Shown: positions 1 through 55,225 of the stretch, one piece after another
How the letters are laid out: each line of letters opens with the position of its first letter
Position numbering within the stretch: position 1 is the first letter of the stretch
IMG/VR virus record: IMGVR_UViG_3300044675_002532
Location: 1-55,225 of that record
Source: a virus
Lineage: Duplodnaviria > Caudoviricetes
Strand: one strand, 5' to 3'
DNA: 55,225 bases
Translations under genes and position numbers: made by a program
The notes under the pieces: generated by a model
What the model saw: the letters and a program-made list of their open reading frames with translations, nothing else
Told to the model about the DNA's origin: nothing
The model's database searches: none

Positions 1-208
1 TGTAGAGCGTGGTGCTTCCAACGAGAACGGGAATGCGACCCGCCTGAGTGGCGACCGTGCCAGACACAGAACCGTTGGTGAGCTGAGTCGAACCAATCGT
101 CAGCGTGCTGCAAACAAGGTTATCAATCGTAGCCGAAGCAACGGTTAAAACCGTACCAGAGAACCCGTTAAGCGAAATAACCGGTCCCGTAAATGTTGTA
201 TTAGCCAT
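1..208 (-). CDS. Small virion protein (partial; variant allele of 54659-54892)
   Basis: ATG at 208 with GAGGA SD; MANTTFTGPVISLNGFSGTVLTVASATIDNLVCSTL... runs off the window start. Confidence 0.8.
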   Translation of the reverse strand, partial: MANTTFTGPVISLNGFSGTVLTVASATIDNLVCSTLTIGSTQLTNGSVSGTVATQAGRIPVLVGSTTLY

Positions 209-219
209 GTCAATTCCTC

Positions 220-288
220 ATGCACAAGTCGCTCATCTGTCTGTGCATCGTCCGCTAGGCCGGTCAGATGAGCTGGTTACACCTAGTC
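220..288 (-). ncRNA. Structured RNA with a central stem and two pseudoknots, probably the Mu-gpT-DE motif
   Basis: Stem 231-239/265-273, pseudoknots 282-286/255-259 and 242-248/220-226; compensatory changes in the second copy; lies downstream of a Mu gpT-like capsid gene. Confidence 0.75.
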
Positions 289-297
289 CTATTTTCT

Positions 298-325
298 AGT
301 TTAGGCTTTTCTATAACGCCGTCAA
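298..325 (-). promoter_or_regulatory. Putative sigma70 promoter upstream of the structured RNA
   Basis: TTGACG-16 bp-TAAACT on the minus strand, identical in both terminal copies. Confidence 0.5.
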
Positions 326-326
326 G

Positions 327-359
327 CAAAAAGAAAGGGGGCCGAAGCCCCCTCTCTCC
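327..359 (-). terminator. Rho-independent terminator after the major capsid gene
   Basis: AGGGGGC-TTCG-GCCCCCT hairpin followed by TTCTTTTT. Confidence 0.85.
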
Positions 360-380: not shown

Positions 381-1295
381 TCACACGCCAGGTGTGCCGA
401 AAACAGTGCGCGGGTCGGTCCAGCCGAAAGCGTAACGCTCCGTGCTCTTGAAGCGCGTGGAGTCGGTTTCGAAGTCACCTTCCATGCTCTTCTCAAGGCC
501 ACGACGCATCATCAGCTTCAAGCCTTCCGGAGCGTCCGTCTTCACCCACCAAGCAGTGGTCGAAGTCAAACGCGACAGGTTGGCCTGACCGCCAGCGAGG
601 AGACCCATCGACTTCACCGGGTTGATGTCGTTGTCAGCCGTGCCAGTACGGAGGACGCTCTTCAAGAGCACTTCCGCTTGGAACACGTTCGACGGCGACA
701 CAACGAGCTTCTCCGGGTTCAAACGGATGCGCTTGCCGTTGTTGTCAACAGCGTTGCGGATCTGAATGAGGATCTGCTCAAGCGAGGTCTGCGACAGGTT
801 CGCCGGAGTCGTCAACTGGTTGCTGAACGTACCCTGAGCAATCGGGTGGTTCGTCGCAACAAGCGTCACGCCGTCGCCGCCGTTGTAGCCAGCGGTGAAA
901 GCGCGGTTGAGGATGTTGGCACCGAGGGTTTCCTTCGTTTCGATCAGCGACTGCGCCAAGTGCTTGGCATAGGTCTGACCGATACGGATGTGGTCACCAT
1001 CTTCCACGAGCACCTTCGTGAGCGCGAACGCAAGGCCGTAGACCTTGTAGACGTAACGCTGCAAGAAGAGCACGCCGCCAGCATCATACGTAACAGCGGT
1101 GCCGTCCGGGAGTTCCGGAGCAGCGCCGAATCCGTACAGAACCGGCTCTTCGTGGTAGTTGCGGGGAATGCCCTGCTGCTGGACGAATACTTGCTTCCAC
1201 TCGTCAGCACGCTGGTCATAAATGCCATCGAAAGCCTCGTTAAGAATAGGCTCAACAATGGAACGAAAGTCAGTACTACGCATTGGGACTGCCAT
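381..1295 (-). CDS. Major capsid protein (Mu gpT-like, HK97 fold)
   Basis: 304 aa, AGGAGG RBS, motifs GGDGVTL..TNHP and ERYAFGWTDPR, followed by a strong terminator, within the head module. Confidence 0.9.
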   Translation of the reverse strand: MAVPMRSTDFRSIVEPILNEAFDGIYDQRADEWKQVFVQQQGIPRNYHEEPVLYGFGAAPELPDGTAVTYDAGGVLFLQRYVYKVYGLAFALTKVLVEDGDHIRIGQTYAKHLAQSLIETKETLGANILNRAFTAGYNGGDGVTLVATNHPIAQGTFSNQLTTPANLSQTSLEQILIQIRNAVDNNGKRIRLNPEKLVVSPSNVFQAEVLLKSVLRTGTADNDINPVKSMGLLAGGQANLSRLTSTTAWWVKTDAPEGLKLMMRRGLEKSMEGDFETDSTRFKSTERYAFGWTDPRTVFGTPGV

Positions 1296-3478: not shown

Positions 3479-3877
3479 TCAAATAAACGCTTTGATGGCA
3501 AGTGGATCACCCACTACACCACCCACGATGTCGAGATCGTTAAAGATTACAAACAGGGCTTCTTCTTCCCCGTCTTTGCCAAACGGCACCTTCCAACGAT
3601 CACCGCCGTACTTCGGTACACGGACGAACTCGCCGTCTTTGCACCAATTACCTTCCGGCCAAGATTCCATCGTGTTGCGATTCTTGAAGGCCAACGGCCC
3701 AAGCTTTACAACTTTTGCGATCTGGGTATTCCAGATCTCAGTCTCACGAGTTTCGGTGTGCAAAATAATGCCACCAGCAGAAGTCTTTTTTGCTGAGCGA
3801 ATCTGCACGAGGACTCGCGAACCAAACGGAATCAAACCCGGCTCTACACTAGGGAAAGCCTCTTCCAATGCTGACAT
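3479..3877 (-). CDS. groES: Co-chaperonin GroES-like protein
   Basis: IPFGSRVLVQ...KTSAGGIIL...VVKLGP..WCKDGEFV..PKYGG..IFNDLDI. Confidence 0.85.
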   Translation of the reverse strand: MSALEEAFPSVEPGLIPFGSRVLVQIRSAKKTSAGGIILHTETRETEIWNTQIAKVVKLGPLAFKNRNTMESWPEGNWCKDGEFVRVPKYGGDRWKVPFGKDGEEEALFVIFNDLDIVGGVVGDPLAIKAFI

Positions 3878-51476: not shown

Positions 51477-52940
51477 TTAGCACTTACCGCCGCCGTACAT
51501 CGCTTTACGTCCGTATGAAGGAACGCCGCCCTTGTTGAGCTTGGTCATCGGCTTGCCGGGGTGCATCGCACGCTCGTGCTTATGGACAGCCTTCTTCACC
51601 ATGGCCTTGTCCATCTTCACATCAGAGTGTTTAACCTTGCCGCCCTTAGCGTACTTGAGCATCTCGACTTTTTTGCGGGGCTTAAGGGATTGGTATGTAG
51701 GCACCGTGCTCTCGTCTTCCATATCCAAGCTTAAGCCCGGAGCATACTTCTCAGCGTGACGCGCCTTATCCAAAGCACGACGCTCCATGGCACGCTCTTT
51801 CGCCATACGACGACCCTTAGCAGCGGTGTAGCGAGTCTTTGGACCCTTGGACTCGTAAGCCATGTACTCGTCGCTGAAAATCTCGCCACCAGCGGCCTTC
51901 TTCGCAGCGCGAGCTTCCGACAGCGCAATCGCCATCGCTTGCTTCGGGTTCTTCACAACAGGACCCTTCTTGGAACCTGAGTGCAGCTTGCCCTCTTTGT
52001 ACTCGCGCATCACTTTGGCGATCTTCTCACCCTTCACTGCGCCGCCTTTTTTGAAGACCGGAACTAACCGCTGCTCAGGAGGCAGCTCAAACGGCAATAC
52101 TTCGGGCTGACGAACCGGAGCCGGAGCACGCATACGCATCGGAGCTTCGCGACGAGCAACGCCACGCATACCCGGACGCATAACCATGTCACGACGGTCG
52201 CCCATCATGGCGCGGCGGTTGCCAACGCGGTCTACTGGTTCACGACGCGGCCTATCATAAATACTGCGATCTTCCGGCATTAACAATTTACCAACAGCAC
52301 CACGCTGTTCCTGCGGGGAATAAAACGGCTCTTCCGGCAGCGGAGTCAAAGCGCCGATGGGCTGACCAATATCTTCGCGAGGAGCAGACTCGTACCTTTG
52401 CGGCAATCCGTCATACACTTGATTTAACAGTTCTGGCGGCAGTTGCGGTCTGTCGTACTCTTCCGGGACCATGCTCATTAATTTTATAGGCGATACACGC
52501 GGAGCAAATTCCCTAAACCCAATATCACCCGGATCTTTCATGCGAGTAGGAGGCACGTAATCCGGCTGGCCAGCATCCAGTTCTGCAACCGGACCACCCT
52601 CAGCGTAGCCCTCGTACTTGCCCTTGAAGCGACGAGCCGGAGCCAGATCCTTGCCGCGACCCGGAGGACGCTTAACCGGGAGAACATCCTTTTCCTTGCC
52701 CGGAACGTAACCGCCCTTCTCGTAACCTTGGCCCTTGCCGACCTTAGGCTTGGACTCCATCTTCGGAGCGCCACGCGCAGGAGCATTCGGCTTGGCACGA
52801 GCAGGCATTCCTTTGGCGGAATCCTTAGCCTTAGCCGGGAGCTTAGTTACATGACCGCCTTTGGCATAACGCTGAACGCTGCCCGAGTGGAAACCACCCG
52901 CAGACGGGAAAGAAAAATCTTTAACGTACTTAACGCCCAT
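51477..52940 (-). CDS. Basic multi-module protein with repeated xxxGG motifs and a DUF6496-like segment
   Basis: Eight GG motifs; KIAKVMREYKEGKLHSG..KQAMAIALSEAR. Confidence 0.75.
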   Translation of the reverse strand: MGVKYVKDFSFPSAGGFHSGSVQRYAKGGHVTKLPAKAKDSAKGMPARAKPNAPARGAPKMESKPKVGKGQGYEKGGYVPGKEKDVLPVKRPPGRGKDLAPARRFKGKYEGYAEGGPVAELDAGQPDYVPPTRMKDPGDIGFREFAPRVSPIKLMSMVPEEYDRPQLPPELLNQVYDGLPQRYESAPREDIGQPIGALTPLPEEPFYSPQEQRGAVGKLLMPEDRSIYDRPRREPVDRVGNRRAMMGDRRDMVMRPGMRGVARREAPMRMRAPAPVRQPEVLPFELPPEQRLVPVFKKGGAVKGEKIAKVMREYKEGKLHSGSKKGPVVKNPKQAMAIALSEARAAKKAAGGEIFSDEYMAYESKGPKTRYTAAKGRRMAKERAMERRALDKARHAEKYAPGLSLDMEDESTVPTYQSLKPRKKVEMLKYAKGGKVKHSDVKMDKAMVKKAVHKHERAMHPGKPMTKLNKGGVPSYGRKAMYGGGKC

Positions 52941-52952
52941 GATGGTTTCCTC

Positions 52953-53279
52953 TTAACAATCCCATTTACGGAGAGACAACGCTTTGCGCGTCGGCCTGCC
53001 CTTGTCATCTTTCATTGGACCCGGCATTCCGGACATCCTCGCACAGAACGATCTGCGTCGTGCCGCTGCTTTCGGAGATTTCTTTGCTTGGCTCGCGCTA
53101 ACCGGCGGCTTCAAGTTCATCCCTTCACGCTTCGCACTGCGACGACCGGCTTCGTTCAAACCGCCTTCTGGATTCTTTCCAGCCTTGCGTTGCCAAGCGC
53201 CAGTTTTAAACGCACCACCGCCCTTAGCAAAGTTCTCAAAGTCTTCCCAGTCTTCCCAGTTACCGCGAATCTTCATCAC
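52953..53279 (-). CDS. DUF6321-like basic protein
   Basis: GKNPEGGLN..RRRSFCARMSG..LRKWDC. Confidence 0.75.
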   Translation of the reverse strand: MMKIRGNWEDWEDFENFAKGGGAFKTGAWQRKAGKNPEGGLNEAGRRSAKREGMNLKPPVSASQAKKSPKAAARRRSFCARMSGMPGPMKDDKGRPTRKALSLRKWDC

Positions 53280-54630: not shown

Positions 54631-54655
54631 AGAAAAGGGGGCCGAAGCCCCCTCG
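54631..54655 (-). terminator. Rho-independent terminator
   Basis: AGGGGGC-TTCG-GCCCCCT followed by TTT; same hairpin as the capsid terminator. Confidence 0.75.
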
Positions 54656-54658
54656 TCA

Positions 54659-54892
54659 TTACGGCGTCAGGCTGCTGTACAGAGCGATGTAGAGCGTGGT
54701 GCTTCCAACGAGAACGGGAATGCGACCCGCCTGAGTGGCGACCGTGCCAGACACAGAACCGTTGGTGAGCTGAGTCGAACCAATCGTCAGCGTGCTGCAA
54801 ACAAGATTGGTGATGTTGGCCGAGTTAGAAAGGATGGTGCCAGAGAACCCATTCAGCGAGTTAACCGGCCCGGTAAAAGTTGTTGACGCCAT
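54659..54892 (-). CDS. Small virion protein (capsid fibre/decoration-like)
   Basis: MASTTFTGPVNSLNGF..., 77 aa, GAGG SD adjacent to the structured RNA. Confidence 0.75.
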   Translation of the reverse strand: MASTTFTGPVNSLNGFSGTILSNSANITNLVCSTLTIGSTQLTNGSVSGTVATQAGRIPVLVGSTTLYIALYSSLTP

Positions 54893-54904
54893 TGCAATAC
54901 CCTC

Positions 54905-54973
54905 ATGCACGAGTCGCTCATTAGTCTGTGCATCGTCCGCTAGGCCGGTCTAATGAGCTGGTTACACCTAGTC
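54905..54973 (-). ncRNA. Second allele of the double-pseudoknot RNA
   Basis: Stem GCTCATTAG (54916-54924)/CTAATGAGC (54950-54958). Confidence 0.75.
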
Positions 54974-55073
54974 CTATTTTCTAGTTTAGGCTTTTCTATA
55001 ACGCCGTCAAGCAAAAAGAAAGGGGGCCGAAGCCCCCCTTCTCCAGTCTTTTGGACTTATCCGCGTAAGCGGC

Positions 55074-55225
55074 TCAGACGCCGGGCGTACCAAACACCGT
55101 GCGCGGGTCGGTCCAGCCGAAAGCGTAACGCTCCGTGCTCTTGAAGCGCGTGGAGTCGGTTTCGAAGTCACCTTCCATGCTCTTCTCAAGGCCACGACGC
55201 ATCATCAGCTTCAAGCCTTCCGGAG
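55074..55225 (-). CDS. 3' end of the major capsid gene (variant copy, partial)
   Basis: Encodes ...ERYAFGWTDPRTVFGTPGV* with synonymous differences from 381-532. Confidence 0.85.
   Translation of the reverse strand, partial: PEGLKLMMRRGLEKSMEGDFETDSTRFKSTERYAFGWTDPRTVFGTPGV

Follow-up and report, generated by a model that had tools for sequence, protein, structure and literature searches.

A double-pseudoknot leader RNA between the capsid gene and a small conserved gene of HTVC023P-type phages and their relatives

Gene context of the RNA

The window analysed here is the whole 55,225-nt record of a virus of the Caudoviricetes (IMG/VR record IMGVR_UViG_3300044675_002532), and close to its first end it carries, on the minus strand, a major capsid gene, an intergenic structured RNA and the beginning of a small gene that runs out at the end of the window (Table 1). 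The capsid gene product of 304 aa matches the Pfam families Phage_capsid_4 (E 3.8e-12) and Mu-like_gpT (E 1.5e-6; 28.3 bits against a cut-off of 20.1), and it is 41% identical to the capsid protein of Pelagibacter phage HTVC023P (E 4e-76). The distance from the capsid stop codon to the start of the RNA is 95 nt, which places the RNA directly downstream of a Mu-gpT-like head gene. Between the two lie a terminator-like hairpin and a promoter-like site, the -10 element of the latter being separated from the first strand of the RNA (PK1a) by 11 nt. This order, which had been proposed in an earlier reading of the sequence without database searches (the sequence-only reading), agrees with the positions obtained in our consensus scan; the terminator-like site counted as one site in that scan, with no excess over shuffled sequences. 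The window also encodes a GroES-like protein.

Table 1. Coordinates of the leader RNA, its parts and its neighbours in the 55,225-nt window
Feature	Position	Strand	Basis or remark
Major capsid gene, upstream neighbour of the RNA	381..1295	-	Pfam and HTVC023P match
Capsid-gene terminator-like hairpin and U-run	334..354	-	consensus scan
Promoter-like site TTGACG-16 nt-TAAACT	298..325	-	9 of 12 consensus positions
Leader RNA, whole	286..216	-	about 71 nt
PK1a CUAGG, 5' strand of pseudoknot 1	282..286	-	pairs with 255-259
P1 5' arm GCUCAUCUG	265..273	-	pairs with 231-239
Invariant A between P1 and P2	264	-	92 of 92 sequences with a letter there
P2 hairpin CCG-GCCUAG-CGG	252..263	-	stem 263-261 with 254-252
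PK1b CCUAG, within the P2 loop	255..259	-	partner of PK1a
Invariant junction ACG	249..251	-	A 95/95, C 95/95, G 94/95 distinct sequences
PK2a AUGCAC, 5' strand of pseudoknot 2	243..248	-	pairs with 220-225
Invariant junction AGA	240..242	-	95/95 at all three positions
P1 3' arm CAGAUGAGC	231..239	-	partner of 265-273
PK2b GUGCAU, 3' strand of pseudoknot 2, immediately 5' of the Shine-Dalgarno sequence	220..225	-	partner of PK2a
Shine-Dalgarno sequence GAGGA	215..219	-	read from the sequence
AUG of the downstream gene	206..208	-	start of the MANTTFTGPVISLNGF ORF
Downstream gene, N-terminus MANTTFTGPVISLNGF, exits the window end	2..208	-	ORF
Second allele of the whole RNA	54901..54971	-	model R1, 103.2 bits; two compensatory P1 changes
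Complete 77-aa gene, second allele, N-terminus MASTTFTGPVNSLNGF	54659..54892	-	ORF
Hairpin GGGGGC-UUCG-GCCCCC and UUUU after the 77-aa gene	54633..54652	-	seen in the sequence
Second-allele promoter-like site and capsid terminator-like hairpin	54983..55041	-	consensus scan

Fold of the RNA and its two alleles

The sequence-only reading described a 9-bp stem (P1) whose loop can pair both with an upstream strand (PK1) and with a downstream strand (PK2), and all of the pairings that it listed are present in the window sequence. Absent from that description was P2, a 3-bp helix which displays the PK1 partner in its loop. PK2 had been given seven pairs; six of these are conserved, and the seventh, A242-U226, is lost in the second copy of the RNA by a change of U to C. 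The 3' strand of PK2 directly abuts the Shine-Dalgarno (SD) sequence in the window, as had been stated. In this variant the SD and the AUG are unpaired and only adjoin the fold.

The second copy lies near the other end of the record (54971..54901) and differs by two changes in each P1 arm (..CUG/CAG.. to ..UAG/CUA..), with all nine pairs kept. The compensated changes on which the sequence-only reading relied are therefore real; it is the notion of a separate copy that is doubtful. Since the ends of the record overlap by about 533 nt at 92% identity, and the overlap reaches both ends, the two copies are most likely strain alleles of a single locus in a circularly permuted assembly and not paralogues.

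Covariation and conservation

At least 598 relatives of the capsid protein are present in the viral contig collection, and 80 of their loci were kept. The exact 27-nt loop was found at 41 loci and a degenerate pattern of the core at 120 or more IMG/VR loci. Three covariance models were built, containing P1 only (R1), P1 and P2 (R2) or the pseudoknots only (R3). R2 gave full-length matches at 42 of the 80 capsid loci and at both ends of the window, and in another search it matched every one of 87 loci, 80 of them taken with the core pattern and 7 from genome contigs.

The helices were evaluated in two alignments, each of which left half of the structure unfitted. In the alignment fitted to P1 and P2 only (A5), the unfitted pseudoknots were 90.9% (PK1) and 93.6% (PK2) paired. 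In the alignment fitted to the pseudoknots only (A6, from R3; 101 matches, 95 of them distinct), pairing among the distinct sequences reached 97.2% in PK1 and 96.5% in PK2, and 95.0% in P1 and 100% in P2, neither of which had been fitted. Pairs slid out of register paired at 23-38.5% in A6. Both sides had changed in 22 of the 24 pairs among the 95 distinct relatives (4/5 in PK1, 10/10 model pairs in P1, 2/3 in P2 and 6/6 in PK2), and none of 500 shuffles, a control that ignores phylogeny, matched any of the observed measures. The covariation that had been noticed within the window thus extends to 95 relatives and to all four helices, each 95-100% paired.

The variety of the paired strands is considerable. 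The P2 stem occurs as CCG/CGG, CAG/CUG and CCU/AGG, and the PK2 strands as AUGCAC/GUGCAU, UUGCAC/GUGCAA, ACAUGC/GCAUGU, UCAUGC/GCAUGA and ACAUAC/GUAUGU, the full 6-bp PK2 being formed in 111 of 116 parsed instances. Among 115 unique instances there are 59 distinct P1 5' arms, and the cells of P1 comprise 996 Watson-Crick pairs, 94 G-U pairs and one A-C pair. This imbalance between G-U and A-C fixes the transcribed strand and speaks for RNA rather than DNA. While the helices vary, the seven unpaired junction bases (A, ACG and AGA) are essentially invariant in the 95 distinct sequences.

The energy of nested folding did not stand out from that of shuffled sequences (z = -0.70, 46 of the 200 shuffles being as good, and z = +0.26, 116 of the 200), a test which is uninformative because its energy model leaves out the pseudoknots. 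The case for the RNA rests on the comparative data and not on folding energy, and on those data the structured RNA is real and well supported. The window variant is a compact double pseudoknot with conservation of riboswitch grade. An alternative hairpin (P0), in which PK1a would pair with the stretch immediately 5' of P1, was considered and is not compelling: 75% of 112 instances can form 4 bp or more of it, compared with 40% when the linkers are shuffled, and in the class to which the window belongs it stays at 3 bp in each of the 10 instances.

Association with the downstream gene

The motif travels with the downstream gene and not with the capsid gene. An ORF starting with M-x(1-3)-[TS][TSH][FYWL]-x-G-[PA] follows the motif in 112 of the 115 unique instances, and the three exceptions are loci that are cut at the end or mis-parsed. 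The spacing is likewise constrained, with 9-13 nt from the end of PK2b to the start codon in 103 of the 112. Of the 115 instances with a PK2 of at least 5 bp, 49 continue after PK2b with GAGGA and 43 with AAGGA. The products form a family with the N-terminus MAxTTFxGPVxSxNGF, and this N-terminal segment is the sole part of the protein that is conserved throughout the family.

The capsid loci that lack the motif (38 of 80) fall into three groups. At seven, an ORF fills the position of the leader, its stop abutting the ATG of a gene of MAQTRF(S/T)GPV type; the one such ORF that was scanned, at locus L006, matches a GIY-YIG domain (Pfam E 8.7e-5; 23.2 bits, cut-off 22.6). At 11, a related gene with a MSQTTWSGPL-type N-terminus (TTW type) occurs without the leader, preceded in nine cases by a bare spacer of about 50 nt with terminator and SD. 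By a loose N-terminal pattern, then, a related gene is present at 18 of the 38; at the remaining 20 neither gene was found in the fetched DNA, which for two of them ends no more than 25 nt past the capsid stop. Neither R2 nor a TTF(S/T)G(P/A) pattern had a match in five near-complete relatives that lack the motif; the TTW type is present in two of the five. The seven loci in which a GIY-YIG-type ORF takes the place of the leader show that the gene can exist without it, as would be expected of a regulator more than of an essential element.

The presence of an ORF in the same place in 7 of 80 relatives, with an endonuclease domain in the one scanned, would also suit an element that acts as DNA, a homing-endonuclease target or a recombination site whose conservation mimics that of an RNA. 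Compensatory changes in four helices, two of them pseudoknots, and the strand-specific tolerance of G-U over A-C make such an element extremely unlikely.

The sequence-only reading called the downstream gene a virion gene. That label found no backing, as the 77-aa protein matched no Pfam or PHROG family and both AlphaFold models were of low confidence (pLDDT 67.5 and 57.7). The protein has 142 homologues, all of them unnamed or hypothetical, and tblastn against 50,697 phage records gave nothing at E ≤ 1. An Atlas lead to Phage_head_fibr is weak (score 0.84, in 17% of one cluster). As for the terminator assigned to the 77-aa gene, its hairpin and U-run can be seen in the sequence, but the site does not pass the consensus scan.

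Promoter context and expression

Of 134 instances, 62 have a -10-like hexamer whose end lies 3-14 nt ahead of the motif; a control window gave 2 of 134. In about half of the instances the motif begins some 2-4 nt past the predicted transcription start. At some loci it is a coding region and not a promoter that precedes the motif.

Twenty sequencing runs contain part of the stretch; 14 are recorded as RNA, mostly labelled freshwater or aquatic. Capsid-gene contigs were present in all four RNA-library runs examined, and the motif region was covered in one of them only (X1), the contigs of which include one of 151 nt at 109-253 that shows no differences. As a sign of expression these contigs give a weak hint, for contigs show neither strand, ends nor true transcription.

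Relation to Mu-gpT-DE and to sister leader types

The position of the RNA had been taken to match that of the Mu-gpT-DE motif (RF03012). We know of no role for Mu-gpT-DE, and literature searches gave nothing to the contrary. The motif comes from the survey of Weinberg et al. (2017), the main text of which has no discussion of it (PMC5737381). Direct comparison of the window RNA with Rfam 15 by covariance models did not return Mu-gpT-DE or any other family: none matched the window at its gathering score, nothing fell on the motif at E ≤ 10 in a scan of positions 1-700, and RF03012 searched alone over the whole record had no match at E ≤ 10, let alone at its 49-bit gathering cut-off.

A different relation appeared when loci were sampled by the gene instead of the capsid. 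Eighty loci collected with a degenerate pattern for the N-terminal coding sequence of the gene had 51 leaders matched by R2 (type A), nine matched by RF03012 (type C) and 19 of a further kind (type B), and one leader was cut off. RF03012 matches all nine type C leaders at E ≤ 1e-8, six of them at or above 49 bits; the other 31 loci that were scanned, among them the 19 with a type B leader, gave no match to it at E ≤ 0.01. The type C leaders and the window RNA have in common the core ..CUG-AC-[hairpin]-AC(G/A)-6 nt-A(N)GA-CAG...

Type B is an AT-rich leader that both R2 and RF03012 miss, and its 19 loci were recognised by eye. An alignment of 18 sequences (17 of the 19 sampled loci and that of Pelagibacter phage HTVC027P) is 99.5% paired, with changes on both sides in 4 of 7 PK1 pairs and 7 of 8 P1 pairs; its PK2, CCUAG/CUAGG, is complementary but shows no variation across the aligned columns, and a single outlier, L322, conforms by eye though not as aligned. 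The PK2b strand CUAGG of type B lies within CUAGGAGG, which brings SD bases into the helix. In type C it is the 3' arm of P1 that lies in the SD, as CAAGG, CAGG or CGG, and the 5' arm follows these changes (CCUUG/CAAGG, CCUG/CAGG, CCG/CGG; nine sequences, by eye). Pairing of the internal 6-mer of type C with the start-codon region was rejected, as only three of the nine sequences fit it.

The RF03012 consensus reads P1 (CCUG/CAGG), A, a hairpin CAG..CUG, ACAcUAGCCAcGA, P1', and then AGAU..AUG. Both it and the window RNA stand after a Mu-gpT-like/Phage_capsid_4 capsid gene and before the same gene family, and both follow the order P1, A, P2 hairpin, AC(G/A), 6-7 nt, A(N)GA, P1'; compared by eye, with the R2 consensus also taken into account, they share the words ..CUGAC.., ..GGACG.. 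and ..AGACAG.., and the junction from P2 to P1' measures 12 nt in the window RNA and 13 in Mu-gpT-DE. They differ in that P1 has 9 bp in the window RNA and 4 bp in Mu-gpT-DE, and in that only the window RNA is extended at both ends, its added 5' strand pairing with the P2 loop (PK1) and its added 3' strand with the internal 6-mer (PK2). The SD overlaps the P1 3' arm of Mu-gpT-DE, whereas in the window RNA it lies 11 nt beyond P1, after PK2b.

The identification with Mu-gpT-DE consequently holds for core, place and gene family, and it does not hold in the sense that RF03012 fails to detect the window RNA. Because sister leaders that do match RF03012 share the core and the gene family, we count the window RNA as a variant of Mu-gpT-DE; by sequence comparison it is an expanded, double-pseudoknot variant and a larger relative of that motif. 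Moreover, the last elements of the RF03012 consensus are an SD-like AGGAG and the AUG that opens this gene family, which suggests that what was named a downstream element of the capsid gene is better understood as a 5' leader belonging to the gene that follows. Mu-gpT-DE, an orphan 'sRNA' in Rfam since the 2017 survey, would thereby become the suggested 5' leader of one particular gene family, with three or more architectural variants of which it would be the smallest.

RF03012 is typed 'Gene; sRNA' in Rfam, and this label, together with the promoter-like site that the window RNA has of its own and its location in the head-gene module, might be taken to indicate a small RNA acting in trans, or an RNA for packaging, assembly or antitermination. 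Such a role is very improbable in our view: no terminator separates the SD and AUG from the motif, the consensus of RF03012 itself enters AGGAG...AUG, and the motif strictly adjoins one gene family.

No paper describing the double-pseudoknot RNA was found in the literature, and a search for 'pelagiphage' with 'pseudoknot' returned 0 papers. A 2023 catalogue lists 8,495 anonymous candidate RNA models ('DNAVirus_N') predicted from IMG/VR (PMC10690425). It draws on the viral collection used here and is concerned with RNAs of the same kind. As far as the accessible part of the catalogue text goes, its pipeline works without pseudoknot modelling, it names no such motif, and it mentions the phage T4 gene 32 mRNA leader pseudoknot. 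With at least 120 IMG/VR instances and strong covariation, the window motif may be among the entries of that catalogue.

Possible function of the leader

The sequence-only reading had offered a translational switch or autoregulatory element, a ribozyme or a packaging-related RNA. Among these functions a translational or autoregulatory role appears to fit the anatomy best, and the ribozyme and packaging roles find no support in this sequence analysis. On balance we consider it probable that the RNA is a leader for translational control in cis, probably an operator for a factor acting in trans. The fold starts near the 5' end of the transcript and stops at the ribosome-binding site, and for this reason it would set the ease with which the 30S subunit starts on the gene, and it would probably also shield the 5' end from decay. 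Since SD bases lie in the closing helix of type C and in PK2 of type B, the folded state is expected to compete with ribosome binding. The invariance of the junction bases suggests that they are a recognition surface for the trans factor. In the form of this mechanism that we favour, which is speculation, a phage protein would bind the folded leader as a feedback operator and keep translation low, and the most economical putative binder, again speculatively, would be the unassembled gene product itself, through its conserved N-terminal segment.

It is well established that the product of T4 gene 32 represses its own translation through a leader pseudoknot. The window RNA resembles that case in that it, too, belongs to the 5' leader of a phage gene, is pseudoknotted and lies shortly before the ribosome-binding site; like an operator of the gene 32 type, it places structure at that site within the leader of the gene itself. 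There is no likeness in sequence or architecture, and the product of the window gene is not a known nucleic-acid-binding protein. The leaders of the E. coli alpha operon and of rpsO are pseudoknots bound by the proteins S4 and S15, respectively, which trap or block the 30S subunit. These too are compact and partly double pseudoknots at or including the SD; they are cellular and not phage elements, and have no homology to the window RNA.

The main rival to translational control by a trans factor is a constitutive stabiliser or enhancer, that is, a passive structural leader that works without a ligand or a partner protein, in which the knot would cap the 5' end, stabilise the mRNA and insulate the SD so that translation proceeds at a fixed rate; stacking of PK2 on the SD-anti-SD helix is also conceivable. 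In the window variant, the SD and AUG lie unpaired immediately 3' of PK2, and being free, they would allow the fold equally to aid ribosome binding. The start of the motif close behind the predicted transcription start, and the occurrence of the cassette in varied upstream contexts, can be read in the same way. A passive leader nevertheless seems rather unlikely to us, for plain hairpins would do, seven invariant unpaired bases in 95 distinct sequences exceed the needs of a stabiliser hairpin, and in types B and C the SD bases lie within helices.

Conservation of this kind, with variable, co-varying helices around invariant junctions, is like that of an aptamer, and the leader could in principle be a riboswitch in which a small molecule or ion held by the knot stabilises P1 or PK2 beside or over the SD. 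The extent to which closing helix and SD overlap differs among the three leader variants, and variable overlap of this kind is also known in translational riboswitch classes. The SAM-II, preQ1-II and fluoride riboswitches keep SD bases in a helix, and they have in common with the window RNA a small size, pseudoknots, invariant junctions and closing helices by the SD. The window RNA differs from them in that it has no Rfam match, with no riboswitch family of Rfam 15 found, and in that the gene concerned encodes a small phage protein and is not a metabolic or transport gene. A riboswitch for a small molecule or ion is accordingly improbable.

More broadly, it is possible, if somewhat doubtful, that the three leader types form one aptamer class built on the invariant A/ACG/AGA core, sensing either a small molecule or an unassembled head-accessory protein. 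Were this so, an accessory gene would be tuned by a new RNA of riboswitch-like or assembly-feedback type, in phages that belong to what one preprint, in its accessible part, names the most abundant group of the ocean.

Small double-pseudoknot architecture and invariant unpaired bases are also compatible with a ribozyme, and the RNA may represent a new self-cleaving class; alternatively it could be an RNase processing signal that splits the capsid message from the downstream one. Its intergenic place, behind a terminator that must leak in loci without a promoter-like site, would suit such a function. No ribozyme family of Rfam 15 was found at E ≤ 10, the order PK1a-P1-P2/PK1b-PK2a-P1'-PK2b differs from that of the HDV-like, twister, pistol and hammerhead ribozymes, and processing is not needed, since in many instances the motif seems to be served by a promoter of its own. 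Cleavage or processing is in our judgement very unlikely, and translational control by a trans factor remains the reading that we prefer.

Carriers of the leader

The carriers are podophages of the HTVC023P type and freshwater relatives. Two cultured Pelagibacter phages have the leader, HTVC023P in its type A form before gp41 (R2 30 bits, E 2.5e-6) and HTVC027P in its type B form before gp62, which makes the orphan motif directly testable in a phage-host system; an infection transcriptome has been published for one of the two, HTVC027P (MN698241) with HTCC1062 (PMC12753301). vSAG 37-F6 is placed in the HTVC023P-type group in the accessible part of a published account (PMC9599517), and GroES is among the gene-map labels given in a figure legend of a preprint on the phage group.

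Neither of two other candidate carriers was kept. A match in Sphingomonas citri is a local one of 27 nt only. In Caulobacter phage RW the end of the capsid gene is 82% identical to that of the window over 68 nt, yet there is no motif, the best R2 score in that phage being 8.4 bits (E 0.61). Assignment of a host from genome contigs was likewise given up: eight of nine pattern matches were true motifs, but they lie on contigs of metagenome-assembled genomes that are labelled with widely differing taxa, and these contigs are probably mis-binned phage DNA.

Variants of the leader and of its genomic position

An AT-rich leader (type B), sister to the double-pseudoknot leader of the window (type A), is carried by further loci, including one of the cultured Pelagibacter phage HTVC027P (see table). 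Its pseudoknot PK1 comprises 7 bp (ACUAUAC/GUAUAGU) and shows covariation, its P1 stem has 8 bp, and the 3' strand of its PK2 overlaps the Shine-Dalgarno (SD) sequence. Type B was missed both by the Rfam model Mu-gpT-DE (RF03012) and by the covariance models that we built from type A leaders. Mu-gpT-DE is typed in Rfam as 'Gene; sRNA', and its 53-position consensus, as aligned to the relative locus L326:150-203, holds an SD-like AGGAG internally and the AUG of the downstream gene at its end.

The entire leader together with the -10 element of its promoter is replaced in 7 of the 80 capsid-relative loci by an ORF of about 198 aa, the stop of which lies right against the start codon (ATG) of the small gene that otherwise follows the leader. 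Of these seven ORFs, the one scanned (L006) gave a Pfam hit to the catalytic domain of GIY-YIG endonucleases at E = 8.7e-5. The conserved leader DNA may be the homing site of this endonuclease. The small-gene product begins with MAQTRF in all seven loci vs MA(N/S)TTF otherwise. Eleven more of the 80 relatives lack the leader RNA and hold in the same slot a gene of a related family (MSQTTWSGPLASGD...GGPN at the N-terminus); where this gene directly follows the capsid stop (nine loci), the spacer in front of it holds just the terminator hairpin of the capsid gene plus an SD.

Location of the features discussed
Feature	Location	Strand	Remarks
Type B leader	L254-L333 (e.g. L266, L254, L303); L374:3538-3629		L374, Pelagibacter phage HTVC027P
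Leader-replacing ORF	L006:2502-3098; also L007, L017, L030, L032, L033, L046		
MSQTTWSGPLASGD...GGPN-type gene	L039, L042, L064, L069, L071, L072, L077, L081, L040		~52 nt after capsid stop
MSQTTWSGPLASGD...GGPN-type gene	L020, L056		further downstream of capsid stop
GroES-like co-chaperonin gene	window 3479-3877	-	PHROG 3188, E = 7.7e-10
487-aa low-complexity protein	window 51477-52940	-	lysine-, glycine- and proline-rich
108-aa protein	window 52953-53279	-	adjoins 487-aa protein; PHROG matches

Variation within type A and between the record ends

Within type A, the 5' strand of PK1 has another potential partner in the bases just 5' of P1 (e.g., CCGGG with UCCGG; window 274-286). This pairing reaches at least 4 bp in 75% of the 112 type A instances vs 40% of shuffles, but stops at 3 bp in the class to which the window belongs; it may represent an alternative conformer or a coincidence. 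The P1 arms are mismatched in one relative (..CUG vs CUA.., L112:580-650) beside a run of N, which is probably a chimeric assembly and not a naturally broken stem.

Because the ends of the record (1-545 and 54680-55225) overlap at 92% identity, the sequence suggests that two strains were collapsed into one contig. Differences between the two ends are concentrated around the capsid stop and in small-gene codons ~20-32 (GTVLTVASATIDN vs GTILSNSANITN); these codons form a hypervariable stretch flanked by a conserved N-terminus and C-terminus.

Elsewhere in the window, the head module has the GroES-like gene as its close upstream neighbour, and the 108-aa protein aligns with the C-terminal ends of several PHROG families of much greater length (e.g., phrog_3477, profile positions 848-928 of 928).
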